From positions 1,674,001 to 1,738,000 of the forward strand of contig NC_088810.1 of the NCBI RefSeq assembly GCF_011386835.1: a stretch of DNA of 64,000 bases, written 5' to 3'. Positions 8,896-49,845 of the stretch are shown one piece after another (positions within the stretch are counted from its first letter, which is position 1; each line of letters begins with the position of its first letter). A model generated the notes under the pieces. The model was not told the origin of the DNA, ran no database searches, and saw nothing but the letters and a program-made list of their open reading frames with translations. The DNA comes from Chrysemys picta bellii (lineage: Eukaryota). The position numbers and the translations under genes were made by a program.

Positions 8896-9936
8896 TCAAG
8901 CCAGGTTGGGGGCCACCGAGCTCTGGGCCAGCCCGTCCACGGAGGAGGCTGCCTCCTTCCTGCAGCTGTGGGACCTGGCTGAGTAGGCCATGTCCTCAAG
9001 CAGGGCCCGGCGGAAGGCCCCGGCCAAGGTGGTCCGGCCCAGCGCCCGGCGGAAGTCCAGCCCCATGAAGAAGTAAAGGACGGGGTTGGCACAGCTGTTG
9101 AGATAGGCCAGGGAGGAGGCGAGAGGCAGCCCCACGGCCATGGCCTGGCCCTTGACGCCCGCCAGCTTGAGGAGGAGGAAGAGATGGTAGGGGGCCCAGC
9201 AGAGGAAGAAGGTCACCACGATGGCCGCCATGACCTTGAAGGGCTTCCTGGAGCGGATGGTGGCCGGGCGCCGCCTCAACACGGCCGCCAGGGCCCCGTA
9301 GCAGGCCAGGATGATGGCGAAGGGGGCCAGGAAGCCACAGAGCAGCCGGAGGAGATATAGCATCAGCTTGGGTCCTTCTCCCAGCGTCAAGGAGCACTTG
9401 AGGCCGTGGGTCTTCCCGTCCGGGACCAGGTTGCGGTAGAGGTAGAAGGGCAGGCTGGCCGCGGCGGCCACCCCCCATGCCCCGGCAGCGGCCGCCCACG
9501 CCAGGCGGGGTCCCCGGCGGTTCTTGGACCACACCGGGAAGGCCACGGCCGCCAGGCGGTCCAGGCTGATGGCCGCCAAGAGGAAGACACTGCAGAACAT
9601 GTTGAGGTATTTGATGAAGCTGGTGGCCTGGCACAGGAAGGCGCCGAAAGGCCAGTGCCCGCGGTAGAAGGTGTTCTTCACCAGGGGCACCACCCGGGTG
9701 ACTGAGAAGATGAAGTCGGCCACCGCCAAGTTGAGGAACCAGACGCAGTTGATGGAGCGGCCGGCCCGGCGGGCTGTGAGCCAGATCACCAGCCCGTTGC
9801 CCAGCGAGCCCCCCACACAGACCACGGTGTAGAAGACGACCTGGACTAGGTCCATGACGGCGTTCAGGTCAGACTTGGCCTTGGCAGAAGGACCAGGGCT
9901 GGTCAGCCAGAGACCGGAGGAGACATTGGCCTCCAT
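8896..9936 (-). CDS. Class A GPCR, chemoattractant receptor family (CMKLR1/FPR/GPR32/GPR33/C3aR-like), 346 aa, single coding exon
   Basis: ATG at 9936 lies just inside a splice acceptor (ctctctctgtctcag|GTCCCGTCATGG). Seven TM segments with GN (TM1), NLAVAD (TM2), WPFG..LC, SLDRL, GFLAP...CY (TM5), CWAPYH (TM6), NSCANPVLY (TM7). The exact orthologue cannot be assigned by eye. Confidence 0.88.
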   Translation of the reverse strand: MEANVSSGLWLTSPGPSAKAKSDLNAVMDLVQVVFYTVVCVGGSLGNGLVIWLTARRAGRSINCVWFLNLAVADFIFSVTRVVPLVKNTFYRGHWPFGAFLCQATSFIKYLNMFCSVFLLAAISLDRLAAVAFPVWSKNRRGPRLAWAAAAGAWGVAAAASLPFYLYRNLVPDGKTHGLKCSLTLGEGPKLMLYLLRLLCGFLAPFAIILACYGALAAVLRRRPATIRSRKPFKVMAAIVVTFFLCWAPYHLFLLLKLAGVKGQAMAVGLPLASSLAYLNSCANPVLYFFMGLDFRRALGRTTLAGAFRRALLEDMAYSARSHSCRKEAASSVDGLAQSSVAPNLA

Positions 9937-11089
9937 GACGGGACCTGAGACAGAGAGAGAGAGATTGAGAGTGGGGGGAGGCCTGTTCCCAGAGCCTGCC
10001 AGTCCCCCGCGCTGGAGCTGGACCAGCACCGGTGCCCCCGAGAGGGGAGAGGCCCCATGCCCCATTCCCTGCCCCACTGAGCCAGCCAGTCCCCCACCCT
10101 GGAGCCCGATTTGGGCTGGTGCCCTCTTGAGGGGAAAAGCCCCGTTCCCCATTCCCTGCCCCACTGAGCCAGCCAGTCCCTGCCCTGGGGCCGGTGCCCC
10201 CTAGCCAGGGAAGGGTTCACAGCAACCCTCTCTGGAGGTGGGGCCAGGTTTATTTGCATGGCCAGGCTGACCCCACGTCTTCCCCGCCTTCCTTTGTCCA
10301 TCTCTGGGCTCCCAGCCACGCACTCCATGAGCGGTGGAGCTACCGGTGGCAGCCCGGGGGGGTACGTCTGGCTCCTTGCCAAGTGTCCCGAGCTGTGGGC
10401 GGACAGAGGGCACCGTGCCAACTTCCACACCTGGCTTTTATCACGGCCGCACCCCGCCCCCCCGCCGACTGGCACTGCGGCTGCTGCTGGGATGGTGCCT
10501 GTCAACCAGGAAAAGGGGAAATAACCCTGTGCAGGGCTTCTAGGACGCCTGGGTTCTCTCCCTGGCTCTGTGAGGGGAGAGGGAGCTAGTGTGTGTGTGG
10601 GGGGTACTGTGAGCCAGGACTCCTGGGTTCTCTCCCTGGCTCTGTGAGGGGAGTGGGTGGGGGGTACTGGAAGCCAGGACTCCTGGGTTCTATGCGGGGC
10701 AGACCCAGCCCTCCCACTTATCCAGAACAGGGACATGGTCCAGACTCACCCCCACTCCCCGAAAGCTAGCAGAGCCCAACCATCGGCATAGCACAAGCAA
10801 GACAAATCTCAGCTCCCCCCCCCCCCCCCCAGCCCTGTCCCAACTTGCATCTGGAGCATCCTCGGAGGCCCCCCAGAACGGCACAACAGACCCCCCCCCC
10901 ACCGGTCTGTCTACACTGGGGGACAGCCAGATGCCCCCTCACTTCGCTCCAGCCAGCGCTGAAAAATAGCCAAGAGTCGGGGGCACCCCCCGCCCCCCGC
11001 AGCCCCTGGCTCCCCCTGCTGCCTGGCCTGGGGCGGTCTGACCCCGATGGGGCAGCACTTGTCCAGCTGCAGGGCAGACACACACACAC

Positions 11090-11930
11090 GGAGCTAGGGT
11101 GTTATAATGCACATGCCATGTCACAGCCGACACACAACGCGTGTGCACACACACAGAAAAACACAGAGCGATTGTTATCACACACACAATGTCACAACCG
11201 ATACACAAGGTGTGCACACACACAGAAAAACACAGCGATTGTTATCACACACACAATGTCACAACCGACACACAACGTGTGCACACACACAGAAAAACAC
11301 AGAGCGATTGTTATCACACACACAGTGTCACAACCAACGCACGTGTGCACACACACACAGAAAAACACAGAGCAATTGTTATCACACACACAGTGTCACA
11401 ACCGACACACAACGTGTGCACACACACAGAAAAACACAGAGCGATTGTTATCACACACACACTGTCACAACCGACACACGTGTGCACACACAGAAAAACA
11501 CAGAGCGATTGTTATCACACACACACTGTCACAACCGACACACGTGTGCACACACAGAAAAACACAGAGCGATTGTTATAACACACACAGTGTCACAATC
11601 GACACACAATGCTCACACATGCATGCACACAAACACACTGGTAGAGTGTTATAATGCATGCACCATGTCACAACTGACACACAACATGTGCACACACTCA
11701 AAACGGAGAGCAATTGTTATAACACATACAAAAAGTCACAACTGACAAACATCGTGTGCACACACACAGAGCTAGAATGTTATAACACACACAGTAACGA
11801 CTGACACACACACAGAGCTAGAGTGTTATGCACACACAATCACAACACACAACGCATGCACACACAACACACACGGAGCGATTGTTATAAGGCACACAGT
11901 CACAACTGACACACAACGTGTGCACACACC
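11090..11930. repeat. CA-rich degenerate minisatellite (~60-bp unit)
   Basis: Unit gagcgattgttatcacacacac...tgtcacaaccgacacac..gtgtgcacacacagaaaaacaca repeated about 10-13 times. Confidence 0.9.
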
Positions 11931-14246
11931 CCCCCCCGCACAGAGATAGAATATTACGCCCCCCACCCCGCCCCTGCCCGTGTTCCCAGTCCAGCCATGG
12001 CAGGGGCTGTGTGGGGCCCAGCTGGCGTGACCACCCACCCCGTTACCTGGGGAGGCAGCGCCCGCCAGCCCCGTCCGCTTGTCGTTGGCTCTGAGATTAT
12101 TTTCCAGGAACCCAGCGGCCGCCAGACGGTCACTCCCCCTGCCCCCCTCCCCGGGGTTGGGCCCCGGCCAGAGCGGACGTGCTGGGGGAGTGATGTGCTA
12201 AAAAGGAGAACTGGGGGCGGGGGGGGGGGGCACTGCCTGTTGCTGCCAGCATGGGGGCTGGCGGGGGGCATCAGGGCGGGAGCTGTGGGGTCAGGGCAGG
12301 GCCGGCAGCGGAGAACCCAGGTGTCCGGGCGGAGCAGGTGGAGACACAGGGCAGGGCTCGCTTAGAAGCCAGGTGAGACCAATTGTGAGGGGGAGGATTC
12401 CCACAATGCACAGGTGTCAGGCAGCTCCCAGCATGCACGGCAGCACCATGGCCAAGCGGGGAGGGGGGGGAGGGGAGAGTTCCCAGCATTCACTGCTCCC
12501 CTTGGCATGGCAAGGCCTTAGGGCGCTGGGATGGTCTTGCCTGGTGGGCATCTTGTCATCCCCCAGCTGCCCCTCGCCCACCTCTGCCCTGGGCTTTCGC
12601 TTCTTCCCCAGCTGGTAGGACAGGAAGCCGGGTTCTTTTCCCTGGTGAAAAACTCCCCGGGGGGGCAGGGGCCTCAGTTCCCCTTTTCACATGTGAAACC
12701 GGAGGTGTCTTCTTCCTGCCACCTGCGAGCCAGACTGGAGCCCGGCCCGCCCGCCATGCCCAGGGAAAGAGACCCCCGGCTCCCTTTGCTCGCCCTGGGA
12801 GGGGAGTAGGGCTAGCCCCTCGCTCTGTGCCCCCGGGCTCCCACCCCCAGAGGGAGCAATGCCCCCCGATCTCTAGCTGCAGGGAGTCTGCCAGCGTCAC
12901 ACAGGTTTATTGAACGTCTGGACCCAGCCCAGGCAGTTCTCAGGGCCCTCGGGCCTGGCCAGCTGGGTCTGTCCGGTCCCCATGGGTCCGGCTGTTCCTT
13001 GTCCCCAGCCCAGCCCCCTCCTTCCAGCCCAGCCCCCTAAATCCCCTCCCCCACCAGCCCCACCTCTGTCCTCAGTCCCAGGTAAATAGGTCACCTGGGC
13101 CCCTCTCTTCCCTTCTTTGTCCCCCCCTGTCAGGTCCCCGGGCCCCTCTCTTCTCAGCCCATTGCCCCCTGCACTGCCTAGAACTGGCTGGCTCCCAAGG
13201 TGGGGGGCCTCCTGGTCACCAGTCGCTGGGTCCCCCATCTCCAGGCCATTGTCTGGGTCCTGACTGCTAGGCAACGTCACACCTGGTCCCCTGCAATTAC
13301 AAACCCCCTCCCACCTCCTCGTTACACACACAGCACACAGGGAAACTGAGGCACACACCATGCTCGTGCAAAGCTCTAAGAAAATCCCTCACTTCATCAC
13401 AAACACACACACACACGTCACAACTGAGACACAACACATCAGCACACACACAGAAAGCTAGAGTTTTCTACCACACACGGAGTCACACAACGTGTGCACA
13501 CCCCCGCCCCCCACGCACAGCGATTGAATATTACACCCCCTCCACCCCACCCCTGCCCGTGTTCCCAGTCCAGCCATGACAGGGGCTGTGTGGAGCCCAG
13601 GCTGGTGGGGCCCAGGGTGGCGTGGCCGCCTGGTCCATTATCTGGGGAGGCAGCGCCCACCGGTCCCGTCTGCTTGTCTCTGGCTCTGAGCTTATTTTCC
13701 AGGAACCCAGCGGCCGCCAGAGTGTCACCCGCCCCCTGGATTTGGCCCCCAACCAGAGCAGAACGTGTGAGGATGCACCAAAAAGGAGAACTGGGGGTGG
13801 GGGGCACTGCCTGTTGCTGCCAGCATGGGGGCCGGGGGAGGGGGGCGCATCAGGGCGGGAGCCGTGGGGTTCGGGCAGGGCCAGCAGCGGAGAACCCAGG
13901 TGTCTGGGTGGAGCAAGTGGAGACAGTGGTGAGCTGGAGCCGGTTCGCACCAGTTCGCAAGAACCGGTTGTTAAATTTAGAAGCTGGTGTAGAAGCGGCT
14001 GTTAAAGGGGTGTGCGGGTGGGCAAACAACTCCAGTCCGCAGGCCACATCCAGCCCGCGGGACCGTCCTGTCCGGCCCGCCTGAGCTCCCAGTGGGGGAG
14101 GCTTCCCCGGTCCCTCTCCCGCTTCCCCCCCTCGCAGAGCGGCAGTGCACCGCGCCGCCGGCGCCAGCGCTCTGGGCAGCTCTGCAGCTCCTGCCGCTCT
14201 GAGCGGGGGGCGGGAGGGGAGCTGCGAGCTCCAGTGTCCGCGCGGC

Positions 14247-15421
14247 ATAGAATCATAGAATCATAGAATCATAGAATATCAGAGTTGGAAGGGACCTCAA
14301 GAGGTCATCTAGTCCAACCCCCTGCTCAAAGCAGGACCAATTCCCAGCTAAATCATCCCAGCCAGGGCTTTGTCAAGCCGGGCCTTAAAAACCTCCAAGG
14401 AAGGAGACTCCACCACCTCCCTAGGTAATGCATTCCAGTGTTTCACCACCCTCCTAGTGAAATAGTTTTTCCTGATATCCAACCTGGACTTCCCCCACCG
14501 CAACTTGAGACCATTGCTCCTTGTTCTGTCATCTGCCACCACTGAGAACAGCCGAGCTCCATCCTCTTTGGAACCCCCCTTCAGGTAGTTGAAGGCTGCT
14601 ATCAAATCCCCCCTCATTCTTCTCTTCTGGAGACTAAACAATCCTAGTTCTCTCAGCCTCTCCTCATAAGTCATATGCTCCAGACCCCTAATCATTTTTG
14701 TTGCCCTCCGCTGGACTCTTTCCAATTTTTCCACATCCTTCTTGTAGTGTGGGGCCCAAAACTGGACACAGTATTCCAGATGAGGCCTCACCAATGTCGA
14801 ATAAAGGGGAACGATCACGTTCCTCGATCTGCTGGCAATGCCCCTACTTATACAGCCCAAAATGCCGTTAGCCTTCTTGGCAACAAGAGCACACTGTTGA
14901 CTCATATCCAGCTTCTCGTCCACTGTGACCCCTAGGTCCTTTTCAGCAGAACTGCTACCTAGCCATTCGGTCCCTAGTCTGTAGCAGTGCATGGGATTCT
15001 TCCGTCCTAAGTGCAGGACTCTGCACTTGTCCTTGTTGAACCTCATCAGGTTTTTTTCTGCCCAATCCTCTAATTTGTCTAGGTCCCTCTGTATCCGATC
15101 CCTACCCTCTAGTGTATCTACCACGCCTCCTAGTTTAGTGTCATCTGCAAACTTGCTGAGAGTGCAGTCCACACCATCCTCCAGATCATTAATAAAGATA
15201 TTAAACAAAACCGGCCCCAGGACCGACCCTTGGGGCACTCCGCTTGAAACCGGCTGCCAACTAGACATGGAGCCATTGATCACTACCCGTTGAGCCCGAC
15301 GATCTAGCCAGCTTTCTATCCACCTTACAGTCCATTCATCCAGCCCATACTTCTTTAATTTGGTGACAAGAATACTGTGGGAGACAGTATCAAAAGCTTT
15401 GCTAAAGTCAAGAAATAACAT
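14247..15421 (-). mobile_element. 5'-truncated CR1 LINE with uninterrupted C-terminal reverse transcriptase ORF (14348-15421, 357 codons)
   Basis: (GATTCTAT)n tail on the minus strand at 14247-14277. RT motifs [29 protein letters not shown]. Confidence 0.95.
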
Positions 15422-15554
15422 CCCTACACGCTGCCCGGAGCAGCATAGTAAGGGGGCCGGGCCGGGGCTGGGAGGAGGGGTTGGATAAGGGGCAGGGAGT
15501 GGTTGGAGGGGGTGGAGGTTCTGGGGGGGCGGTCAGGGGACGGGGAACAGGTGG

Positions 15555-16140
15555 GGTCGGGTAAGCGTGGGAGTCCCGGGGGTCTGTCGGGGTGGTGGTG
15601 GATGGGGTCGGGGCAGTCAGGGGACGGGGAATGGGGGGGTTGGGTAGGCGTGGGAGTCCCGGGGGTCTGTCGGGGTGGTGGTGGATGGGGTCGGGGCAGT
15701 CAGGGGACTGGGAACGGGAGGGTTGGGTAGGCGTGGGAGTCCCGGGGGTCTGTTGGGGTGGTGGTGGTTGGGGTCGGGGCAGTCAGGGGACGGGGAACGG
15801 GGGGGTTGGGTAGGCGTGGGAGTCCCGGGGGTCTGTCGGGGTGGTGGTGGTGGATGGGGTCGGGGCAGTCAGGGGACGAGGAACGGGGGGGGTTGGGTAG
15901 GCGTGGGAGTCCCGGGGGTCTGTCGGGGTGGTGGTGGATGGGGTCAGGGCAGTCAGGGGACGAGGAACGGGGGGGTTGGGTAGGCGTGGGAGTCCCGGGG
16001 GTCTGTCGGGGTGGTGGTGGATGGGGTCGGGGCAGTCAGGGGACGGGGAACGAGGGGGGTTGGGTAGGCGTGGGAGTCCCGGGGGTCTGTCGGGGTGGTT
16101 CTGGATGGGGTTGGGGCAGTCAGGGGAGAGGGAGCGGGGT
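15555..16140. repeat. G-rich tandem repeat (~83-bp unit, ~7 copies) inside the hAT element
   Basis: gggtaggcgtgggagtcccgggggtctgtcggggtggtggtggatggggtcggggcagtcagggga repeated. Confidence 0.9.
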
Positions 16141-16185
16141 GAGATGGGTAGGGCGGAGGGTCCTGGGGGGCAGTTAGGGTGGGGG

Positions 16186-17287
16186 TGTCACAGAGTATGG
16201 GGGACTCAGGGCCCTGTACCCCCGGTGTCCTGCGATTCACCATGACTCTCAGCCAGCCAGTAAAGCAGAAGGTTTATTTAGATGACAGGAACACAGTCCA
16301 AGACAGGTCTTGCAGGCACAGACAACAGGATCCCCCCCTCAGTTGGGTCCATCTTGGGGTCTCAGGGCGCCCCAGCCCCTTGGGAGGTCAGAGCCCCGTC
16401 TGCCTCCCAGCCCTTCCACCAGCCAGCTCTGAAACTCTCCCTTCAGCGACCCCTCCCACAGCCTTTGTTCAGTTTCGCAGCAAAGGTGTCACCTGGCCTC
16501 TAACCCCTTCCTGGGTTCTCATGATACAGTCGGTCAGTCTCCCATCCCCCAATGCAGACTATCCTAGCCACACTCCCCTGTCAGCATTCACAGACCACAG
16601 CAAGAACAGTCCCAGTTCGTCACATCTCTCCCCCCTTCGAGACCGAACTGAGCGGGGTCACTTCAGCCAGTGATCCGAAGAAGTTCGAACCTACCCCCAT
16701 TCCCGGGGATGCCCCCGCATCCCTCCCATTCCTTGGTGAGAATTACACCAGGCCCCTCCAGGTTCACGCCCGCCCTTAAGTCGGGGTTGCTCGATGGCAC
16801 TCGCAGTTCGCATGTGGGAAGGTTTATGCGGCCTGTGCCCTTTTCCCACCCCAATACCCCTGGGGTTCCAACTGGGCTGTGGTCTTCTCCCAGCGCTCCA
16901 GTCTGGAGGTTGGTGATTCAGAGCCCCCCTTTTAACCTTGGCCACCCTCTGGAAGGGCTCCTCTATGCTGGGCAAGGGTCCTAAAGCCATTTTCCCCTTG
17001 TTACAGGCCTTCCTCCCTGTGACGAACTGGGACTGTTCTTACTGTGGTCTTTAGGGACTTGGCTGGGAGGCAGACGGGGCTCTGACCTCCCAAGGTGGGC
17101 TAGGGTGTCCAGGGACCCCAAGATGGACCTAACTGCGGGGGGTCCTGTTGTCTGTGCCTGCAAGACCTGTCTTGGACTGTGTTCCTGTCGTCTGAATAAA
17201 CCTTCTGCTTTACTGGCTGGCTGAGAGTCGTGGTGAATCGCAGGAAGCCGGGGGTACAGGACCCTGAGTCCCCCATACTCTGTGACA
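16186..17287. mobile_element. Gypsy-derived element with two inverted LTRs, an integrase remnant and a PPT
   Basis: Minus-oriented LTR 16186-16624 and plus-oriented, internally deleted LTR 17018-17287; both begin TGTGACGAACTGGGACTGTTCTT and end TGTGACA. PPT GAAGGGGGGAGAGA precedes the left LTR on the minus strand. The spacer encodes GRKACNKGKMALGPLPSIEEPFQRVA, like Gypsy integrase. G5 flanks both sides. Confidence 0.8.
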
Positions 17288-18494
17288 GGGGGGTCTCGGG
17301 AGGGGGTGGTCAGGGGACAAGGAGCGGGGGGGTTGCTGGGTTGCGGGTTCTGAGTGGGGCAGTCGGGGGCAGGACATGGGTGGGGGTCGGATGGGGGTGA
17401 CAGTCTGTTTTGGGAGGCACAGCCTTCCCGCCCTGGCCCCCCGATACAATTTTACAACCCCGATGTGCAGGGCCGGCTTTAGGGAGTGCGGGGCCCGATT
17501 TGAACAATTTCGACGGGGCCCCAGCAGGGATGACTTAAAAAAACACGTAAAAAACCACGTGGGGCTTGTACTCACTGGGTGGCGCGCCGAGTTTTCGGCG
17601 GCACGTCCTTCACTCGCTCTGGGTCTTCGGCGGCACTGAAGGACCCGCCGCCGAAGACCCGGTAGGGAACCGGTTGTTAAGATTTTGGCAGCTCATCACT
17701 GGGTGGAGACACAGGGCAGGGCCGGCAGCAGAGAACCCAGGTGTCCGGGCGGAGCAGGCGCATATACAGGGCAGGGCTCACTTAGGAGCCAGGTGTGACC
17801 AACTGGGGAGGGGGAGGATTCCCAGAATGCACTGCTGCAGCATGGACAAGGGGGGGGAGGAGCATTCCCAGCATGCACTGCTCCCCATTGCATGGCAAGA
17901 CCTTAGGGCGCGGGGCTGGTCTTGGCTGGGGTGTCTTCTCTGCCTCAGTTCCCGGGGGGTGCTCGACCCCCGCTCCGCCCCAGGTCCCGCCCCCCACTGC
18001 ACCCCTTCCCCCAAACCCCCTCCCCATCTCTTGCCACCCCCGCTCCACCCCAGGCCCCACCCCCACTGCACCTCTTCCCCTCCCACCTCTTCCCACCCCC
18101 GCTCTGCCCCAACTGCACCCCTACCCCCACCTCCCATTCCACCTCTTCCCACCCCTACTCCACCCCTTCTCCCAAGCCGCGGTGGGCGGGAGGTGCTGGG
18201 AGTGAGGGGGAGGAGCTGATCTGTGGGGCTGCCGGTGGGTGCCGAACACCCACTATTTTTTTTCCATGGGTGCTCTGCCACCCCTCGCCCACCTCTGCCC
18301 TGGGCTTTCGCTTCCTCCCCAACCGGTGGGATGGGAAGTTGGGTTGCTTCATCCTCTGGTGAAAAACTCCCCTGGCCCCAGAGCAGGGGCCTCGGCTTCC
18401 CCTTTCCAGATCTGAAACCAGAGGTCTTCTGCCTCCCTGTGGCAACCAGGCCGGAGCCCATCCCATCCGCTATGCCTTGGGGAAGAGACCCCTG

Positions 18495-19571
18495 TGTAAC
18501 GATGCGCTTCTGGCGGGACCCAACTGAGAGTGCCAATTCAGGACAAATTCCTAAACAGGGCAGTTACAGCCCAAGGCTGGGGTCTTTCCACATCTAAGGC
18601 AAACCAAACTAGCCAGACAGTGAAGACTTTCGTCTCACCCACTGGCTAATCACAAGTCACACAAGCAATTCCCTTAGACACTCCACTTTCCCAGTATCAC
18701 CACCAGTGCCACTCGTTATGGGGACGAATGGTTATGAAAACCAATACCCCAGTAAAAGAAAAAAGGTTCTCCCGATCCCAAAGGACCAAGCCCCAGACAC
18801 AGGTCAATATACAAATCAGAGCTTACCCACAAATCACGCTGTTGCCAATCCTTTAGAATCTAAAATCTAAAGGTTTATTCATAAAAGGAAAAAGATACAG
18901 ATGAGAGCTAGAATTGGTTAAATGGAATCAGGTACATACAGTAATGGCCAAGTTCTTGGTTCAGGCTTGTAGCAGAGAGAGAATAAACTGCAGGTTCAAA
19001 TCAAGTCTCTGGAACATCCCCTGCTGGGATGGGTCATTCAATCCTCTGTGTAGAGCTTCCCTTTGTAGCAAAGTCCCTCCAGAGGTAAGAAGCAGGATTG
19101 AAGACAAGATGGAGATGAGGCATCAGCCTTTTATGTCCTTTCCAGGTGTAAGAACACCTCTTTGTTCCTACTGTGGAAAATTAAAGCAAAATGGAGTCTG
19201 GAATCACATGGGCCAGTTCCTGCATACTTTGCTGAGTTACAAGGCGTATCTGCCTTCTCTCAATGGGTCCATTGTATAGCTGATGGTCCTTAATGGGCCA
19301 TCAAGCAGGCTAGGCAGAGCTAACACCAACTTCTCTGGGATGTCTCTCAGAAGCATAGCATAAGTTTGAAATACAGACAGTTTAGAGCCAATATTCATAA
19401 CTTCAACTACAAAATTGCTACACGCATATAGACAGCATAATCATAACCAGCCAACCATAATCTTGTCTTAGACACCTCATTTGACCCCCTTTATACAAGA
19501 TTTGGTGCCACTACAGGACCTTGGTTGCAACCATGTTCTATATGGTCCCAGTTCAAATCAATAACGTGACA
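18495..19571 (-). mobile_element. Solo LTR (1077 bp), unit A only
   Basis: TGTAACG...CGTGACA termini; perfect 5-bp TSD CCCTG; minus-strand AATAAA at 18874-18879; empty homologous sites at ~12775 and ~30150. Confidence 0.9.
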
Positions 19572-21254: not shown

Positions 21255-24200
21255 TCACGGCTGCATTATCCGCAGCTCGGAGGGGGTGGTGGAGCCCAGT
21301 GAGCGGTTGTTCCGGCGCCCGCTGCCGGAGCCCATCGAGTCTTCGGCCATGGCGGCCTCCAGCCAGCGGGTGCGGCTGCTGCCCCGCAGCCCCTCCTGGA
21401 AGCGGCGGCCCAGGAAGGCGTAGAGCAGGGGGTTGAGGAAGCAGCCCAGGCAGGTGAGGCTGAAGGCCAGGGAGGAGCCCACCTTGAAGGCTGCACGATT
21501 GCTCGGCGACCTGTGCAGGAAGTTGAAGACGTGGTAGGGCAGCCAGCAGAAGAAGAAACTCAACACCACGGCAGCTACCACCTTGGCCGTACGGTTGGGC
21601 CGGCGGCCCCGGTGCCCGGCCCGCAGCATCATGACCACGTGGCAGGCTGTGATGACCAGCAGCGGCGCCAGGAAGCCAGCCACAAACCGCACCATGATCA
21701 TGGCCTGCTGCCGCGCCATCCTCGTCGCCTCGTCCCCGAAATTGTTGATGCAAAAGCAGCGCTCGCCCCGGCAGGTCACCTGCCGGAAGACCAGGTAGGG
21801 GGCCGAGAAAGCCCCGGCCAGCAGCCACGCCACGGCGGCCGCCCCCCAGGCCAAGCGCGGCGTGCGGAACCGCTGGGCCCAGACGGGATGGGCCACCAGC
21901 AGGCAGCAATCGGCCGAGATGAGCGTCAGCTGGAAGACGCTGGTGAACATGCTGAGGAAGAGGAGGGAGTTGACGGCTTTGCAGAGGAAGTTGCCGAAGG
22001 CCCACTGATTGCCCGCGGCGGTCTTGGCGGCGTAGAAAGGCAGCAGCAGGGAGTAGAGCAGGTTGGCCAGCGCCAGGCTCAGGAACCAGATCGAGTTGAC
22101 CGTCCGGCGCATGCGGAAGCAGGTGACCCAAATCACCAGGCTGTTGCCCACCGTGCCCAGCAGGGAGGAGACCACGAAGATGGCCACCGAGAGCTGGTCG
22201 AGGACATTGGAAGTGGGCATGGTGCTGTTGTTGGCCACGGGTGAGGTGACGTTGCCGGAAAGCTGGGGAGAAGTGACTGCTTTAGCATGTGGCCCGGCCA
22301 GTGCCCCTCACTCCCAACTAGGACTGCCAGGCGTCCGGTTTTCTCCCTGCCTGCCCCAGCGCCGCACGGCTCCCGGAAGCGACCTCCATATCCGCCTCCT
22401 AGGCGCAGGGGCTGCCAGGGGGACTCCGTGTGCTGCCCCTGCCCTGAGCGCCGGCTCTGCAGCTCCCATTGGCTGGAAACTGCGGCCAATGGGATCTGCG
22501 GGGGTGGTGCCTGCAGGAACCACGGCCAACGGGAGCTGCAGGGGAGGTGCCTGTGGGAGTGGGCAGTGCACACCGCACAGAGCCGCCTGGCCGTCCCTGC
22601 GCCTAGGAGCCGGACATGGCGGCTTCTTCCAGGAGTAGCGCGGAGCCGGGGCAGGCAGGGAGCGCTGCCGGCTGGGAATCACCTGAGGTAAGTGCCGCCT
22701 GGCCGGAGCCCGCACCCCGAACTCCTGCCCCAGCCCTGAGCCCCCTCCCTCACCCTGACTCCTTCCTGCAACCTGCACTCCCCCCACACACGCCACCCCC
22801 AGCCCTGAGCCCCCTCCCGCACCCTCACTCCCTCCTGCCACCTGCACTCCCCCCACACACGCCACCCCCAGCCCTGAGCCCCCTCCCGCACCCTCACTCC
22901 CTCCTGCCACCTGCACTCCCCCCACACACGCCACCCCCAGCCCTGAGCCCCCTCCCGCACCCTAACTCCCTCCCAGGGCCCGCACTCCCTCCTGTACCCC
23001 AGCCCTGAGCCTCCTCTTGGAGCCCACAGCCAAATTCGCGCTTGGAATATGCACCCCTCATCCCCCACCCCCAGCCCCGAGCTCCCTCCCGCACCCTAAC
23101 TGTCTTCTGGGGCCTGCACCTTGCACTCCCTCCCTCTACCCCAGCCCAGAGCCCCCTCCTGAACCTCAAACCCCTCATCCCCGGCCCCACCCTAGAGCCC
23201 ACAGCCCCAGCTGGAGCCCGCAGCACAACCCCCTGCCCCAGCCCAGTGAAAGTGAGGGAGGGTGGGGGAGAGCCAGCGACGGACGGAGGGGGTGATGGAG
23301 TGTGGGGGGCGGGGCCTCAGGGAAGGGGCGGGTCCTCGGTAAAGGGGCGGGGCAGGGGACAGGACTAGTTTGTTCGGTTTTGTGCAATCAGCACGTTGGC
23401 TACCCTACTGCTGACGACACACAGCCCCTCCTATCCCCCCCACCTCTGCCAGTGGCCCCCACTCCCGACCTGCAGCCCCTCCTATCCCCCCACCTCTGCC
23501 AGTGCCCCCCACTCCTGACCTGCAGCCCCTCCTATCCCCCCACCTCTGCCAGTGCCCCCCGTCCCGACCTACATCCCCTCCTATCCCCCTACCTCTGCCA
23601 GTGGCCCCACTCCCGACCTACATCCCCTCCTATCCCCCCACCTCTGCCAGTGGCCCCACTCCCGACCTACATTCCCTCCTATCCCCCCACCTCTGCCAGT
23701 GGCCCCCGTCCCGACCTACATCCCCTCCTATCCCCCCACCTCTGCCAGTGCCCCCCACTCCCGACCTACATCCCCTCCTATCCCCCCATCTCTGCCAGTG
23801 CCCCCCACTCCCGACCTGCATCCCCTCCTATCCCCCCACCTCTGCCAGTGCCCCCCACTCCCGACCTGCATCCCCTCCTATCCCTCCCACCTCTGCCAGT
23901 GCCCCCCACTCCCGACCTGCATCCCCTCCTATCCCTCCCACCTCTGCCAGTGGCCCCCACTCCCGACCTGCAGCCCCTCCTATCCCTCCCACCTCTGCCA
24001 GTGGCCCCCACTCCCGACCTGCAGCCCCTCCTATCCCTCCCACCTCTGCCAGTGGCCCCCACTCCCGACCTGCAGCCCCTCCTATCCCCCCACCTCTGCC
24101 AGTGCCCCCCACTCCCGACCTGCATCCCCTCCTATCCCCCCACCTCTGCCAGTGCCCCCCACTCCCGACCTGCATCCCCTCCTATCCCCCCACCTCTGCC

Positions 24201-26457
24201 AGTGCACCCCCACTCCCAACCTGCAGCCCCTCCTATCCCCCCACCTCTGCCAGTGCCCCCCTCCCGACCTGCAGCTCCTCCTATCCCCCCACCTCTGCCA
24301 GTGCCCCACACTCCCGACCTGCAGCCTCTTCTATCCCCCCACCTCTGCCAGTGCCCCCCACTCCCGACACTCAGCCCATCCTATCCCCCCACCTCTGCCA
24401 GTGCCCCCCTCCCGACCTGCAGCCCCTCCTATCCCCCCACCTCTGCCAGTGTCCCCCACTCCCGACCTGCAGCCCCTCCTATCCCCCCACCTCTGCCAGT
24501 GCCCCCCTCCCAACCTGCAGCCCCTCCTATCCCCCCACCTCTGCCAGTGCCCCCCACTCCCGACCTGCAGCCCCTCCTATCCCCCCACCTCTGCCAGTGC
24601 CCTGCACTCCCGACCTGCAGCCCCTTCTATCCCCCCACCTCTGCCAGTGCCCCCCACTCCCCACACGCAGCCTCTCCTATCCCCCCACCTCTGCCAGTGC
24701 ACCCCACTCCCGACCTGCAGCCCCTTCTATCCCCCCACCTCTGCCAGTGCCCCCCTCCCGACCTGCAGCCCCTCCTATCCCCCCACCTCTGCCAGTGCCC
24801 CCCACTCCCGACTTGCAGCTCCTCCTATCCCCCCACCTCTGCCAGTGCCCCCCACTCCCGACCTGCAGCCCCTTCTATCCCCCCACCTCTGCCAGTGCCC
24901 CCCACTCCCGACACGCAGCCCATCCTATCCCTCCAGGCACCAGCGCAGCAAGCAGATGCCTGGGGCAGCCAAGGGGAAGGGGCGGCACATCCGGCTCTTC
25001 AGCGGGAAGTCCCTCAGTCCCTCTCAGACTTGGGGTGGCAAAACCCCTGGAGCATTAGCCCCAGTCCAGCCGACTTTCCGCCATCGCCCCAGATCTGTTC
25101 CGGAGTCGCTGCTCCCCAGGGGAGACCCCCCCTCTGCTGATGTTAGCTGGGAGGGTTTGATGTTCCCGTCCCAGACACTGATCCCAGCAGTAACTAGCGC
25201 AGAGCATGACCCGATCCCCGCGGGACCCCACTGGAGACCCCCGCCCACTTGAGGATGAGTCCCTGTTTACAGGTTGTGATGAAGTGGGACTGTTCTTAAT
25301 GTTTCCTCTGAATAATGTGTGTGTGCCTCAGTTTCCCCTATGCATTTCTTAAGTCTCTAGGTGGTGGGATAAAGGCCAGTGCGCATAAATGGCCAACACT
25401 CTGTCTCCTGGCAACAAATGGCCGGGGCCCTTCCCACTTGCAAGGGAATAGCTAAAGGTGAACAAAGAGATCAGGTGACCTCCTGGCCCGGGCAAGAGAC
25501 TAAGCCCAGAGGAGGAGAGGCTGGAGGATTTCAGTTTGGGGCTGGCTGGGAACGGGAAGCAAGGGCAGACGGGGTTGTTTGGCTCGCTGGGCCCCAGGAT
25601 GGACCCGGCCGAGGGGTCCCGTTCGCTGGACCTACAAGCTCTGTTTTAGACCGTGTTCCTGTCGTCTAATAAACCTCTGTGTTACTGGCTGGCCGAGAGT
25701 CACGTCTGACTGCGAAGTGGGGGGTGCAGGACCCTCTGGCTGCCCCAGGACCCCGCCGGGGCGGACTCGCTGTGGGAAGCGCACGGAGGGGCATATGCTG
25801 AAAGCTCCAAGGTCAGACCCAGGAGGTGAAGCCGTGTGAGCTTCTTGCCCTGAAGACAGTCTGCGCCGAGGGAGAGGAGGCTCCCCAAAGTCCTGCCTGG
25901 CTTTGTGGGGAGCAGGTCCAGAGCATCGCCCGGGGACTCCGGGACACAGGTGCGCTCCAATGCCCTTGGGCTTCACCTGACCCACAGGCTGGCTTGGGGG
26001 CCTGACTCCTCTGGGCATGCCCAGTGCTGGGGCAGCAGCCTGCTGAGAGGGACCCAGGAGTCCTAGCTGCTGCCCCCTATGCACACCTGCACTCCAGTGT
26101 TAGAAAAGGTGGGGCCGGGACTCAGGACTCCTCGGTTCTCTCCCTGGCTCTGGGAGGGGAGTGGGGTCTAGTGGTTAGAGGGGGAGGGCTGGGAGCCAGG
26201 ACTCCTGGGTTCTACCCCTGGTTTTGGGAGGGGAGTGGGACTCTGGGTTCCATTGGGGACCCTCTTTGGCTGGATATTGGGGCAGGTCTCTGGGTTCTCT
26301 CTGTCTGGGCTGCCGGGAGGGATGGAGACGTGGGCTATCCCCATCTCTGGTGCTGGTAGACGGCTGTCCCTGCTGCATGGCCGGCTCCTGCAATCTCTGT
26401 CAAATGAAGGCTTGGACTTACCTGCCCCCAGCTCCTGGTGGGGAAGGGGGACGCCAT
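21255..26457 (-). CDS. Chemoattractant-family class A GPCR, paralog A (347 aa, 2 coding exons) with non-canonical microswitches
   Basis: Exon 1 26422-26457 (MASPFPTRSWGQ, donor CAG|GTAAGT, phase 0) joins exon 2 21255-22262 (acceptor ttctccccag|CTT). Open frame with 7 TM, CWLPYH and NPLLY, but LAN instead of LAD in TM2 and DCC instead of DRY. Confidence 0.85.
22319..23407. mobile_element. Old hAT-like element in GPCR intron 1 (paralogous copy at 33227-34658)
   Basis: TIR-like TAGGACTGCCA...TGGC(T/A)AC(C/A)CTA with internal cccagccctgagcccc subterminal repeats. Present in both units, TSD degraded. Confidence 0.65.
23420..24940. repeat. 50-bp C-rich minisatellite, ~30 copies (intron 1 of paralog A)
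   Basis: Unit ctctgccagtgccccccactcccgacctgcagcccctcctatccccccac. Confidence 0.97.
25275..25946 (+). mobile_element. Solo LTR (672 bp) in intron 1 of paralog A, unit A only
   Basis: TGTGATG...GGGACA termini; 5-bp TSD CAGGT; AATAAA at 25668-25673; empty site (gtta caggt acgctcc) at ~38091. Confidence 0.88.
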
Positions 26458-27742: not shown

Positions 27743-30700
27743 AGAGGACGGGGGGAGGGCTCAGCATAGGCAGTCCCAAGCTGGTGTCTCCTGAAGGGGG
27801 CTGGGTGGGGGTAGGGGTGATGGAGGCCTGGGGGGCTGGATCTCCTGGGTCTCCTACGTCCTCCGCAGGTGTAGAGGTCTCTGACGGACGAGGAACCAGG
27901 ATGCTGGGGGCAAAGGAGAGCAGCATGCGCCTCTAGGGGCTGGTGCACAGGGCGGATAACAGCTACACTAGCGCTGCCAGCAAATGGAGCTACTCCTTTA
28001 GCTCCTCATAGGGGATAATGGCTATACTGGTGCCGCTGGTTTGGGGGCAGGGATGGTCTCCTGCAATGCATCTGTGCAGCGCCTGGCGCAGTGGGGCCCC
28101 GATCCTGAGCAGGGGCCCAACTGCAACACAAGTGCCTCCTGACGGCCATGGCTGGGCCTGGCAGCGCCTTGTGGCCTTGGCCTGGATTTCCCTTGACGAA
28201 GCGTCTTAATTGATGCTGCGTCGTTGTGTCTCTTCTGGCGCCGCGTAGCGCCGGGGGCTTGTGGCTGAGGCACCTGGGACTCAGGACTCCTGGGTTCTGT
28301 TCCCGGCTCTGCCGCAGACTCCCTGTGAGAAACCGGCCATGTTACTGCCATCCCCCCGCCTCGGTTTCCCCACCTGTGCAAGCAGCTCACGGTGTATATT
28401 TCACAGTAAGGTGCCACCTAGAGATCTGGTCTGAGCTCAGGGCCCTGTTGTGCCAGGCGCTGCAGAGACAGTCCCTGCCCAGAGAGCGCCCAGTCTCAAT
28501 AGGCAAAGGCTGGAAGGGGAAACCGAGGCAGCAAGAGGGGAGGAGACTTGGCCAAGGTCACACAATAGGTTGGTGGTAGAGGTGGGGAAAGAACCCAGGA
28601 GTCCTGGTTCCCAGGCCCCCCTGTTCTAACCACTAGACTCCCCTCCCCTCCCAGAGCCAGGGAGAGAACCCAGGAGTCCTGGTTCCCAGCCCTATGTCCT
28701 TACTCACTAGATCACATTGCTTGTCTAGCTAAATTGCCCCCTCTCCTCAGCCAATTGTCCCCCCACTGGCCAGAACCGGCTGGCTTCCAAGGTGGGGGGG
28801 CCTCCTGGTCACCAGTCGCTGGTCCCCCATCTCCAGGCCATTGTCCAGGTCCTGACTGCTAGGCAACGTCACACCTGGTCCCCTGCAACAAGAACCCTCC
28901 TCTCCCTTCCCCTTTACACACACAGCACACAGGGAAACTGAGGCACACACCGTGCTCATGCAAAGCTCTAAGAAAATCCCTCACGTCATCACAAACACAC
29001 ACACACACAATGTCACAACTGAGACACAACGCATCAGCACACACAGAAAGCTCGAGTTTTCTACCACACACACAGTCACAACTGACACATGTGTGCACCC
29101 CCCCCACGCAGAGATCGAATATTACACCCCCCCACCCCGCCCTTGCCTGTGTTCCCAGTCCAGCTATGACATGGGCTGTGTGGGGCCCAGGGTGGCGTGG
29201 CCGCCTGGCCCGTTATCTGGGGAGGCAGCGCCCGCCAGCCCCGTCTGCTTGTCTCTGGCTCTGAGCTTATTTTCCAGGAACCCAGCAGCCGCCAGAGTGT
29301 CACCCGCCCCCTGGATTTGGCCCCCGGCCAGAGCAGAATGTGTGAGGATGCACCAAAAAGGAGAACTGAGGGTGTGGGGGGGTCACTGCCTGTTGCTGCC
29401 AGCATGGGGGCTGGCGGGGGGCATCAGGGCAGGAGCTGTGGGGTCAGGGCAGGGCTGGCAGCAGAGAACCCAGGTGTCCGGGCAGAGAAGGTGGAGACAC
29501 AGGGCAGGGCTCACTTAGGAGCCAGATGTGACCAACTGGGGAGGGGGAGGATTCCCAGAATGCACTGCTGCAGCGTGGATAAGGGGGGTGAGGAGCATTC
29601 CCAGCATGCACTGCTCCCCTTGGCATGGCAAGGCCTTAGGGCGCGGGGCTGGTCTTGGCTGGGGTGTCTCCTATGCCTCAGTTCCCGGGGCGTGCTCGAC
29701 TCCCGCTACATCCCAGGTCCCGCCCCCCACTGCACCCCTTCCCCCACCCCTCCACCCCACCTCTTCCCACCCCTCCTCTGCCCCAGGCCCTGCTACTACT
29801 CTACCTCTTCCCCCACCCACTCCCCACCTCTTCCCACCCCTCTCTGCGCCTCGCCCTGCCCCCACTGCACCCCTTCCCCCACACCCCCACCTCTTCCCAC
29901 CCGTACTCCACCCCTTCTCCCAAGCCACAGTGGGTGGGAGGTGCTGGGAGTGAGGGGGAGGAGCTGATCTGTGGGGCTGCCGGTGGGTGCCGAACACCCA
30001 CTATTTTTTTTTTTCAGATCTGGAAAGGGGAAGCCGGGTTGCTTCATCTTCTGGTGAAAAACTCCCCTGGCCCCAGAGCAGGGACCTCGGCTTCCACTTT
30101 CCAGATCTGAAACCGGAGCCCAGCCCATCCGCTGTGCCCAGGGAGAGAGACCCCTTGCTAGCGTTGCCAACTCTGGGAGGGGAGTAGGGTTGGTGGGTCA
30201 GAGTGGCGGGCTGGCAGCCAGGACTCCTGGGTTCTATTCCCAGCTCTGGGAGGGGAGTGGGATCTAGTGTTAGAGCAGGGGGGCTGGGAGCCAGGACTTC
30301 TGGGTTCTCTCCCCAGCTCTGGGAGGGGAATAGGGTATGGTGGTTAGAGCGGAGGGGCTGGGAGCCAGGACTCCTGGGTTCTATCCCCAGCTCTGAGAGG
30401 GGAGTGAGGTCTAGTGTTAGAGCAGGGGGGCTGGGAGCCAGGACTTCTGGGTTCTCTCCCTAGCTCTGGGAGGGGAATAGGGTATGGTGGTTAGAGCGGG
30501 GGGGCTGGCAGCCAGGACTCCTGGGTTCTATCCCCAGCTATCTCTCTGATTCACCATGTGACGGTGGATGAGTCTCACCTGTTCTTTTCTCTGTAACAAA
30601 CACCCCAGATGGCCACTGGGAGCGCCAGAGCCACAGCCCCGCCCACTAGAAGACATGGTGCCACCCATGGGAGGAGCTTTCCAAGCCCCGCCCACTAAGT

Positions 30701-32162: not shown

Positions 32163-35100
32163 TCACGGCTGCATCATCCGCAGCTCGGAGGAGGTGGTGG
32201 AGCCCAGCGAGCGGTTGCTCCGGCGCCCGCTGCTGGAGCCCATCGAGTCTTCGGCCATGGCGGCCTCCAGCCAGCGGGCGCGGCTGCTGCCCCGCAGCCC
32301 CTCCTGGAAGCGGCGGCCCAGGAAGGCGTAGAGCAGGGGGTTGAGGAAGCAGCCCAGGCAGGTGAGGCTGAAGGCCAGGGAGGAGCCCACCTTGAAGGCT
32401 GCACGATTGCTCGGCGACCTGTGCAGGAAGTTGAAGACGTGGTAGGGCAGCCAGCAGAAGAAGAAACTCAACACCACGGCAGCTACCACCTTGGCCGTAC
32501 GGTTGGGCCGGCGGCCTCGGTGCCCGGCCCGCAGCATCACGACCACGTGGCAGGCCGTGATGACCAGCAGCGGTGCCAGGAAGCCGGCCACGAACCGCAC
32601 CACGATCAGGGCCTGCTGCCGCGCCATCCTCGTCACCTCGTCCCCGAAATTGTTGACGCAGAAGCAGCGCTTGCCCCGGCAGGTCACCTGAAGGAAGACC
32701 AGGTAGGGGGCCGAGAAAGCCCCGGCCAGCAGCCACGCCACGGCGGCCGCCCACCAGGCCAAGCGCGGCGTGCGGAACCGCTGGGCCCAGACGGGCCGGG
32801 CCACCAGTAGGCTGCGATCGACCGAGATGAGCGTCAGCTGGAAGACGCTGGCGAACATGCTGAGGAAGAGGAGGGCACCGACGGCTTTGCAGAGGAAGTT
32901 GCCGAAGGCCCACTGATTGCTCGCGGCGGTCTTGGCGGCGTAGAAAGGCAGCAGCAGGGAGTAGAGCAGGTCGGCCAGCGCCAGGCTCAGGAACCAGATC
33001 GAGTTGACCGTCCGGCGCATGCGGAAGCAGGTGACCCAGATCACCAGCCCGTTGCCCACCATGCCCAGCAGGAAGGAGACCACGAAGATGGCCACCGAGA
33101 TATGGGCGAGGACGTTGGAGGTGGGCGTGGTGCTGTTGTTGGCCACGGGTGAGGTGGCGTTGCTGGAAAGCTGAGGAGAAATGACCGCTTTAGCACGTGG
33201 CCCGGCCGGTGCCCCTCACTCCCAACTAGGACTGCCAGGCGTCCGGTTTTCTCCCTGCCTGCCCCAGTGCTGCACAGCTCCCGGAAGTGATCTCCATATC
33301 CGGCTCCTCGGCGCAGGGGCTGCCAGAGAGGCTCTGCACACTGCCCCTGCCCCGAACGCCGGCTCTGCAGCTCCCATTGGCCGGGAACTGTGGCCAATGG
33401 GATCTGCGGGGGTGGTGCCTGCAGGAAACGCAGCCAGTGGGATCTGCGGAGGCAGTGCCTGCAGGAACCACGTCCAACGGGAGCTGCGGGGGAGGTGCCT
33501 GTGGGAGTGGGCAGTGCACACCGCACAGAGCCGCCTGGCCGCCCCTGCGCCTAGGAGCCGGACATGGCGGCCTCTTCCCGGAGCAGCGCGGAGCCGGGGC
33601 AGGCAGGGAGCCTGGCTTAGCCTAGCTGCGCTGCCTGAGGTAAGTGCTGCCCGGTCGGATCCCACACCCCAAACTCCTGCCCCAGGTGGGAACCCCATCC
33701 TGCACCCTAACTCCCTCCTGCAACCTGAACCCCTCCGCCCCACAGCCCTGAGCTGCCTCCTGCACCCTAATTCCCTCCTGAAACCTGCACCCCCCACACA
33801 TGCCACCCCCAGCCCTGAGCCCCCTCCTGCACCCTAACTCCCTCCTGCAACCTGAACCCCTCCGCCCCACAGCCCTGAGCTGCCTCCTGCACCCTAATTC
33901 CCTCCTGAAACCTGCACCCCCCACACATGCCACCCCCAGCCCTGAGCCCCCTCCTTCACCCTAATTCCCTCCTGAAACCTGCACCCCCCACACATGCCAC
34001 CCCCAGCCCTGAGCCCCCTCCGGCACCCTAACTCCCTCCTGAAACCTGTACCCCCTCCCCACACGCCATCCCCAGCCCTGAGCCCCCTCCCGCACCCTAA
34101 CTCCCTCCTGCAACCTGCACCCCCCACACACCCACCCCCAGCTCTGAGCCCCCTCCCGCACCCTAACTCCCTCCTGAAACCAGCATCCCGTCCCCACACG
34201 CCACCCCCAGCCCTGAGCCCCCTCCCGCACCCTAACTCCCTCCTGGGGCCCACATTCCCTCTCGCATCCTTTCCCACACCCCACCCCAGCCCTGAGCCCC
34301 CTCCCGCACCCTAACTCCCTCCTGGGGCCCCCATTCCCTCCCGCATACCTTCCCACACCCCAACCCCAGCCCTGAGCCCTGGCCCGCACCCTGCACCCCC
34401 TCCCTCTGCCCCAGTCCAGAGTCCCCTCCCGAACCTCAAACCCCTCATCCCCGGCCCCCCCTAGAGCCCACAGCCCCAGCTGGAGCCCGCAGCACAACCC
34501 CCTGCCCCAGCCCAGTGAAAGTGCGGGAGGGTGGGGGAGAGCAAGTGATGGAGGGAGGGGGGAATGGAGTGTGTGGGGGTGGGGCCTCGGGGAAGGGGAG
34601 GGGCAGGGGACAGGACTAGTGTGTTCTGTTTTGTGCAGTCAGAAAGTTGGCAACACTACTACTGATACGCAACCCCTCCTATCCCCCCACCTCTGCCAGT
34701 GCCCCCACTCCCGACCTGCAGCCCCTCCTATCCCCTCACCTCTGCCAGTGCCCCCACTCCCGACCTGCATCCCCTCCTATCCCCTCACCTCTGCCAGTGC
34801 CCCCCACTCCCGACCTGCAGCCCCTTCTATCCCCCCACCTCTGCCAGTGCCCCCCACTCCCGACCTGCAACCCCTCCTATCCCCCCACCTCTGCCAGTGC
34901 CCCCCACTCCTGACCTGCAGCCCCTCCTATCCCCCCACCTCTGCCAGTGCCTCCCACTCCCGACCTGCAGCCCCTCCTATCCCCCCACCTCTGCCAGTGC
35001 CCCCCACTCCCGACCTGCAACCCCTCCTATCCCCCCACCTCTGCCAGTGCCCCCCACTCCCGACCTGCAACCCCTCCTATCCCCCCACCTCTGCCAGTGC

Positions 35101-49240: not shown

Positions 49241-49845
49241 ATGTCCCCGCCCCCCCTTGCACATCCCACCCTCCCTGGCTTCGGTGCGGGGCCCAGGCCG
49301 GCGATTATTCACGTTGCCGCCCCAGCACCAAGCCCCGGCGCGTCAGTACCAGGGCGGTGGCTGTCCCAGGAACCGGCCCGGCCGGTTGGGGGAGCTGGCA
49401 ACGCCTTGGCGGGGCAGCTTCGACGCTGGGGGCTCAGCGCAGGGGGAGCAGGAGCCCGGGGAGGCCTCGGGGCGGATCGGGACTGGAGAGGCCCCCAGCA
49501 AGGGCGAGGTGAGTGTGCCCCCAACCAGCTCCCCGTGGCACGGTGCCCTGTGCCCAGTCCCCTGCCCCGCTCCCTGTGGCCCAGCAGCCCCCGCTGAGCC
49601 CCCTAGCGTCACATTGGGGCCAGGACGGGGTCAGCAGGACACACTGACACATCGAGTCACCCCAGCCCACCCCCTGCCCCGTATCGCTGCCTGAGGGCAC
49701 TGAGGTCAACACTGAGTCAGCGCCTGGCCCCTGGCATGAGCTGGCATCGAGGGCCCAGCCTCAGCCCTGGCCCAGAGGAGACACGAAACACGCAGCCAAC
49801 ATAGGTGCTCATGTGTGTGGCAACCAGCCCCCTAGACACCAGGTA

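Follow-up and report, generated by a model that had tools for sequence, protein, structure and literature searches.

Introduction

Bao, Kapitonov and Jurka (2010, PMC2836005) call it unclear by what path an LTR retrotransposon might become a TIR DNA transposon. They suggested that the TIRs of Ginger1 came from an original 3' LTR and a second LTR inserted upstream in the opposite orientation, and offered such a nested inverted LTR as a simple possibility. The Gypsy origin of Ginger was repeated as a proposal in 2019 (PMC6839031), and the same source gives 5 bp as the TSD of most LTR elements. The Gmr1-like group of Gypsy, in which the integrase precedes the RT, is reported to be abundant in turtles (bioRxiv 2025.03.03.638093).

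The texts that we found on inverted LTRs deal with DIRS, yeast rearrangements, a locust lncRNA and the origin of miRNAs, and for plants, inverted LTRs lying side by side are named as a source of hairpins (bioRxiv 2024.07.25.605110). In our literature search, which covered few subscription papers, there was no described U5-U5 unit inserted with a TSD.

In this work, we analysed a 64-kb stretch of the Chrysemys picta bellii genome (the window) and found a locus that has the nested inverted-LTR layout proposed for Ginger1, with exact ends and a plausible TSD. We propose that the element at this locus is probably a one-off integrase product that arose from a nested inverted LTR.

Results

Two inverted LTRs of one Gypsy family form the element

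The features of the element and its surroundings are listed in Table 1. LTR A and LTR B stand back to back, not in tandem, with their U5 ends outward and a spacer of 393 bp between them; the canonical arrangement has two direct LTRs with one U3 and one U5 end outward, whereas the LTRs here are inverted. When each LTR is read in its own sense, TGTGACA is found at both outer ends. Both joints with the host fall on exact U5 termini, and the inner joint falls on an exact U3 terminus.

Table 1. Coordinates of the element, its parts and its surroundings in the 64-kb window
Feature	Position	Strand	Description
Whole element	16186..17287		1102 bp; both ends are outward-facing U5 LTR termini
LTR A	16186..16624 (16624 -> 16186)	minus	439 bp; complete 3' LTR of the parent; starts TGTGAC, ends TGTGACA
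LTR B	17018..17287	plus	270 bp; inverted relative to the parent; U3-deleted; ends TGTGACA
AATAAA of LTR A	16278-16273	minus	
AATAAA of LTR B	17195-17200	plus	
Polypurine tract (PPT)	16625..16638	minus	14 purines; abuts the start of LTR A
3' tail of the non-autonomous parent family	16625..16939	minus	from tblastn of 26 relatives
Integrase piece	16940..17017	minus	26 codons; begins right behind the H2C2 zinc finger and stops right before the DDE core
Putative TSD, left copy	16181..16185	plus	five G
Putative TSD, right copy	17288..17292	plus	first five of six G; 4-5 bp fit best
Host repeat, presumably a hAT-type non-autonomous element	13924..17701		13-bp TIRs (12/13); 8-bp TSD (7/8)
Solo LTR C	25275..25946	plus	672 bp; ~77% identical to the element LTRs in the shared part
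Three tandem single-frame GPCR genes	8899-10200, 21258-22307, 32166-33215	minus	
Ly6/uPAR-domain piece	46517-47533	minus	
Ly6/uPAR-domain pieces	60625-61020, 62697-63152	plus	

The alignment of the two outer arms (16186-16412 and 17061-17287) has 212 identical columns out of 229, with 13 substitutions and two 2-bp indels, corresponding to 92.6% identity by BLAST and 94% outside gaps. The inner ends (16592-16624 and 17018-17050) are inverted copies that agree at 32 of 33 positions. The longest exact inverted word in the element is 47 nt, compared with a maximum of 18 in 200 resamples of a dinucleotide model. LTR B consists of the first 33 bp and the last 227 bp of LTR A, with 10 different bases in place of 179 bp of the U3 of LTR A. 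By tblastn, the pol ends of five relatives (P0013, P0019, P0020, P0022 and P0025) lead into the start of LTR A. An initial annotation of this DNA had described an inverted pair of same-family Gypsy LTRs with outward U5 ends, arms of ~225 bp at ~93% identity, an AATAAA in each LTR, TGTGACA ends, matching inner ends and a PPT in the spacer, and our re-measurement of the coordinates, motifs and arms bore out each of these points.

Inside the element, no PBS-like TGG was found within 3 nt of either U5 end, and both U5 ends adjoin host DNA. Without a PBS and a DDE core, and with both promoters facing outward, the element is incapable of renewed retrotransposition. Our favoured reading, which we hold with moderate confidence, is that a Gmr1-like Gypsy integrase, acting on an abnormal substrate, made this insertion, which is dead and non-coding.

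The predicted fold of the element RNA has an energy of -727 kcal/mol, a value given without a shuffle control at such a length. A read-through RNA would, on this model, form one long hairpin with a stem of ~225 bp. An Rfam search over 14000-19000 returned no matches. The same predicted fold bears on the possibility that the locus is an assembly or read artefact such as a fold-back chimera, for which hairpin-forming, GC-rich and repeat-rich DNA would be a suitable setting. However, 15 differences, some of them indels, separate the arms, each of the three joints coincides with an LTR terminus, and host sequence carries on across the element; we regard an artefact as extremely improbable.

The spacer belongs to a non-autonomous Gmr1-like family

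The minus strand of the spacer is open for 108 codons (17017-16694), with the integrase piece first. When this frame was searched against proteins, three of 83 longer candidates passed, all of them Chrysemys picta bellii gene models of 902-919 aa, and the best of the three covered the whole query at 81% identity. These three models of the parent family belong to the loci LOC135981871, LOC135983278 and LOC135982111, which lie on contigs that differ in length. Between the spacer and the 3' end of the parent, amino-acid identity is 81-85%, and tblastn showed that one parent protein is colinear with the spacer from 17017 to 16623, where the LTR starts. The three parent proteins (P0001-3) contain the SCAN, zf-CCHC and Integrase_H2C2 domains and have neither integrase core nor RT; their protein clusters have 7, 2 and 14 members, counts that possibly include isoforms. 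A Pfam search with the spacer frame itself gave no family in either of two queries.

The last 276 residues of one parent protein, used as a query, gave 26 matches among 2699 candidates, and 24 of the 26 are named turtle proteins. Four of these 26 relatives (three from Chrysemys and one from Gopherus) jump from the start of the integrase to the family tail, and most of the others run on into the DDE core. In the parent tail, the last ~20 codons match the pol end of autonomous relatives while the remainder does not (tblastn, 26 relatives). Because the spacer is colinear with the 3' end of the parent, and because the same integrase-to-tail jump is found in relatives, the loss of the core was inherited. 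The deleted integrase, which had been taken as part of the rearrangement, is thus no part of it, as the same deletion was already present in the parent family.

Two long relatives, P0014 and P0015, have the domain order SCAN, H2C2, rve, RVT_1 and RNase H, which is the Gmr1-like order. The SCAN capsid and the PR-IN-RT/RH order of the Gmr1-like group are found in the relatives of the spacer but not in the element itself, in which LTR A and the 14-nt purine run provide a TG...CA LTR behind a PPT. On these comparisons, the spacer has kept, without rearrangement, the 3' end of a non-autonomous Gmr1-like (SCAN) Gypsy family that occupies several loci in turtles.

As judged from the spacer and the proteins P0001-P0006 and P0025, the turtle non-autonomous family retains an open frame of ~900 aa for gag, protease and the integrase finger, without integrase core or RT. 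Its tail of ~250 nt does not occur in autonomous pol and is found behind other joints in other matches, for example after RNase H in P0004, and several derivative families may have this tail in common as a cis element. Elsewhere in the window, 45194-45352 (plus) has a tblastn match to residues 1025-1081 of P0008, a chimeric-looking gene model.

The inner joint has the form expected of an integrase-made joint

A joint without homology at the first base of an LTR is the signature of integrase strand transfer. At 17017/17018, the integrase piece, cut just after the zinc finger, abuts the exact U3 terminus of the inverted LTR B. To judge what stood before the joint, we screened 26 proteins, leaving out 2 unnamed matches. 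The second cysteine pair of the finger is present in 21 relatives, and 19 of these, the three closest included, have Arg at the position before the joint; these three read CQR followed by GRKA, and the element starts at the codon of that G. The end of LTR B shares at most 1 nt with any Arg codon on that strand. With Arg expected before the joint and homology of at most 1 nt, the joint was not driven by homology, provided that this copy resembled its relatives there. Judged from the sequence, the inner joint is as expected of an integrase-made joint, and the direct joining of the integrase piece to the U3 end of the inverted LTR, noted in the initial annotation, stands with its exact terminus.

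Proteins that span this joint were not found: none of three candidates passed in a search at 63-202 aa, and the full protein library gave 3 matches, all from query residue 9 onward and none across the joint. Since the joint would rarely lie inside a gene model, these negatives are weak either way.

We considered two other routes to the joints. Repair of a one-ended integration by host polymerase (PMC5041404) was rejected because it predicts homology at the joint and a copied or rearranged flank. Two independent neighbouring insertions followed by a deletion were also rejected, as this route needs a blunt deletion at the first base of LTR B and chance continuity of the host.

LTR B may be a sister copy of LTR A

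If the element had come from a single molecule, the two LTRs should tell. In an autointegration of this kind, a cDNA would attack itself on the opposite strand, and a unit of inverted 5' LTR, 3' internal part and 3' LTR would be freed at its U5 ends and then integrated. Such a reaction makes a U3-to-integrase joint, and Ty1, plant Copia and HIV are known to form inversion circles in which a part lying between two LTRs is inverted (PMC7197481, PMC2644782). However, a circle has no free U5 end, and the U5 of the 5' LTR is continuous with the PBS, so that an extra exact cut would be needed; the products are also called non-productive in these two sources. Furthermore, the LTRs of one cDNA are identical, yet LTR B has a U3 deletion and a stretch resembling LTR C that is absent from LTR A.

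The evidence for this stretch comes from shuffling. The 10 odd bases of LTR B with their neighbours match LTR C just upstream of a shared anchor at a score reached by 6 of 2000 shuffles; against LTR A, 194 of 2000 shuffles reach the score. This is pointing to two different LTR copies as the sources of LTR A and LTR B. Because one U5 end would stay on internal sequence, and because the stretch in LTR B resembles LTR C and not LTR A, single-molecule autointegration fits less well, and we consider it very improbable. The initial annotation had left the choice between an autointegration and a nested product; the nested route, which agrees with the proposal in PMC2836005, is the part that we retain.

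The differences between the arms are unevenly spread, with 9 events in 84 columns near U3 and 6 in 145 near U5 (Fisher p 0.09; p 0.03 for non-CpG differences), although the breakpoint was chosen after seeing the data; a scan for clustering at three widths gave p values of 0.18, 0.02 and 0.08. The excess near U3 agrees weakly with what a fold-back route would predict. The 13 substitutions include 3 CpG transitions and 10 others, and neither an A-to-G (ADAR-type) bias nor a CpG-dominated bias was seen between the arms. Compared with LTR C by eye, derived changes are found on both arms. Overall, these weak signals lean towards LTR B as a sister copy, perhaps a mosaic one.

Other members of the same broad group occur in the window as decayed LTR-like 5' ends at 2585, ~13400 and ~28990 (all minus), the latter two being paralogous via a segmental duplication. 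No convincing 3' end or TSD was found within 1.5 kb of these starts. At 11119-11666, TGTCACA occurs nine times at a spacing of ~68 bp, probably as a tandem repeat unrelated to LTR ends.

The flanks point to insertion into a G-run of the host repeat

The element lies in a host repeat that is presumably, by its TSD and TIRs, a hAT-type element. Five G flank the left end of the element and six G the right end. The right flank continues the host in forward direction and does not repeat the left flank in inverted form, so that a simple fold-back duplication in place is ruled out. In a related repeat at 57960-58785, the counterparts of the two flanks adjoin each other. Ungapped fits gave 47 of 55 matches for a 4-bp overlap with the repeat unit at ~58553 and 46 of 54 for a 5-bp overlap with the next unit at ~58613, and the remaining four pairings of overlaps of k=4-6 gave 32-35 matches; a cruder end-mapping had given an overlap of 6. 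The initial annotation had read a 5-bp TSD from the repeat at ~58553. The continuity of the host with an overlap of 4-5 bp is upheld by these fits, whereas the assignment of 5 bp to the ~58553 unit is not, as that unit fits 4 bp and it is the next that fits 5 bp.

Within the range of 4-6 bp, an overlap of 4-5 bp therefore fits best, but it is a G-run and the comparison is with a related repeat, not an orthologue. GGGGG makes up 4.8% of the 5-mers of the host, and two random 5-mers agree with p 0.013. The comparison repeat lies in a second hAT-type element whose TIRs differ, and so it is related to the inner repeat of the host without being a true empty site. That second element (57960-58785) has an 8-bp TSD (7/8) and shares a G-rich inner repeat with the host. 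Solo LTR C, flanked by a clean 5-bp TSD (25270-25274 and 25947-25951), serves as a control within the window for the TSD length to expect from LTRs of this group. Taken together, insertion as one unit, as initially annotated, remains the leading reading by way of the integrase-type joint and the continuity of the host, and its weaker part is that the TSD is a G-run.

The host repeat (13924..17701) is missing from the duplicated segment near 29490, and the duplicated segments that enclose it are 91-92% identical. As the host is absent from the paralogue, the element is younger than the duplication, and the divergence between its arms could all be decay. Besides the element, the host holds a CR1-like LINE piece (~14240-15424, minus, with an RT match) and an 83-bp G-rich array. 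This array (15526-16113) consists of tandem units of 83-86 bp that are 92-99% identical, and it stops ~70 bp before the element; its units are more uniform than the arms of the element.

The same flanks and the same inner joint would be expected if an ordinary provirus with a G-run TSD, carrying an inverted sister LTR inside, had been trimmed in place by one deletion that took out ~3 kb of internal sequence together with the 5' LTR. In that case no two-U5 unit was ever moved, and the deletion would have joined the first bases of the 5' LTR to the inverted U5 end of LTR B at the TGT found in both. The inverted U5 end agrees with the U3 start exactly over 3 nt, and at 5 of 6 when six are compared, and because of this common TGT a provirus trimmed later would yield an identical sequence. 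Inverted repeats are unstable, which is also in favour of such a deletion. On the other hand, both deletion ends must strike LTR termini to the base, when TGT is found ~20 times and a 5-of-6 match ~7 times in each kb of the element sequence that remains, so that dozens of other end points were on offer. Moreover, tblastn over the 64-kb window found nothing left of gag or protease and no end of a third LTR. We judge trimming in place, by a deletion at that shared TGT, to be unlikely, though the strongest of the alternatives.

Surroundings of the element

For the window as a whole, 134 frames were scanned with Pfam, out of 150 chosen from 579 by complexity. The scan matched the three GPCR frames, an RT frame at 14351-15532 and the Ly6/uPAR pieces. 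The element lies between two GPCR frames, ~4 kb from the nearer one. The GPCR frame at 21258-22307 is closest to the C5a and chemerin receptors, and the segments that flank the GPCR genes are duplicated at 86-95% identity. The Ly6/uPAR matches are below the curated Pfam cut-off in three frames, and the frame at 60625 has no Pfam match and is domain-like by eye only. A repeat of ~73-75 bp occurs in arrays and as single copies (49840-50550, 52739-53807, 30170-30530, 38255-38595, 59490-60220 and others). An assembly gap of 284 N (62228-62511) is far from the element.

Discussion

A model for the origin of the element

It appears more probable than any other route that an inverted nested sister LTR gave rise to a linear DNA with two U5 ends, and that integrase inserted this DNA in a single event. 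In the first step, integrase would have attached a sister LTR by its U3 end, facing the opposite way, within the integrase region of a non-autonomous parent; the anatomy of this step is seen in the element, and the event itself is our interpretation. The product would be an inverted LTR followed by the 3' end of the parent and the 3' LTR of the parent. In the second step, this piece would become a linear DNA in a virus-like particle, with a U5 end on each side.

RT is able to switch templates at homology. In one version of the second step, RT working on a transcript of the nested parent would reach the antisense LTR, fold back there onto the LTR copy in its own minus strand and run off at U5. 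As an alternative, two cDNAs in one particle may pair their ends crosswise, one U3 end attacking the other cDNA, with LTR B later reduced to a solo LTR. In the third step, which we infer from the flanks, an integrase acting in trans would use the two U5 att ends and insert the DNA into the G-run of the hAT-type host with a duplication of 4-5 bp. Integrase accepts two U5 ends in vitro. Our search of the literature, which reached few subscription papers, found none on concerted U5-U5 integration. Aberrant HIV integrations and proviruses usually have one normal and one truncated or damaged end, not two normal U5 ends (PMC5041404).

Copy number and significance

Neither the spacer nor the whole layout has a second copy in the 64-kb window. 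It is improbable, in our view, that the 1102-bp unit belongs to a dispersed turtle family with two U5 LTR ends as TIRs and 4-5-bp TSDs that differ from copy to copy, whether made repeatedly from a nested donor by fold-back reverse transcription or moved by cut-and-paste. If there were such a family, a vertebrate would offer a natural case of the LTR-to-TIR step that has been proposed for how Ginger1 arose, and LTR elements could give rise to long hairpin loci in this way. The layout may also be a one-off accident. Even as a single copy, the element would suggest that a germline integrase can insert a substrate with two U5 ends; if it results from deletion in place only, it is a curiosity.

The locus further defines a simple genome-wide search, namely for inverted pairs of same-family LTRs with outward U5 ends and a TSD. 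Such pairs would presumably be missed by LTR finders, as these are built on direct repeats. The element lies between chemoattractant-receptor genes and could, from the predicted fold, make a long hairpin RNA.

Comparison with known systems

With the Gmr1-like Gypsy elements of turtles, the element shares a colinear spacer, the same joint from zinc finger to tail and the same start of the LTR behind the PPT. It differs from them in having no direct 5' LTR, PBS, gag or protease, and in that its upstream LTR is inverted and both of its ends are U5. The hypothetical intermediate between an LTR element and Ginger1 (PMC2836005) has the same layout as the element. Unlike that intermediate, the element encloses 26 integrase codons only, with no DDE core and no inward promoter, and it could therefore not become autonomous.

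Ginger1 itself has TGTNR termini and TIRs of 40-270 bp (PMC2836005), and the element, whose arms start with TGTCA and measure 227 bp, fits both. This likeness raises the possibility that an integrase or a Ginger-like transposase cut an inverted LTR pair out of a genomic donor at both U5 ends and reinserted it, making it a non-autonomous TIR element with perhaps many copies; such an origin is proposed for the Ginger1 TIRs in PMC2836005. However, the G-run at which the element lies is neither the CCGG or CCGT of the 4-bp TSD of Ginger1 nor the AT-rich RTATAY target of Ginger2/TDD, for which a 4-bp TSD (5 bp in TDD-4/5) is given (PMC2836005). Excision by a Gypsy integrase is described as unknown in PMC2836005, and in PMC9004415 Ginger1 is reported in turtle as relics only. 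With one copy of the element in 64 kb, no second match to the spacer in the window and no protein found that carries the joint, we hold movement by cut-and-paste to be quite improbable. Furthermore, the element has no transposase (no Pfam match in the spacer frame), its ends are LTR sequence of a Gypsy family, its arms are LTR R-U5 with polyA signals, and it has a PPT. A place among the Gingers is thus denied by the TSD and target and by the lack of a transposase.

The inversion circles formed by autointegration (Ty1, SISYPHUS and HIV-1) resemble the element in that an LTR end lies exactly on an internal site between two inverted LTRs. Those circles are dead ends with identical LTRs, whereas the element is linear and chromosomal and has a putative short flanking duplication. 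DIRS1-type elements are likewise retroelements with inverted terminal repeats (PMC7192593). Unlike these, the element has neither ICR nor tyrosine recombinase, and its coding remnant belongs to the lineage of DDE-type integrases; the outer 40 nt of each end matched the inner 648 bp at chance level (52-168 of 200 shuffles reach the score), and a DIRS reading of the element falls away. The element is therefore not Ginger1, Ginger2 or DIRS: by function it is close to an aberrant Gypsy integration, and in appearance to a TIR element.
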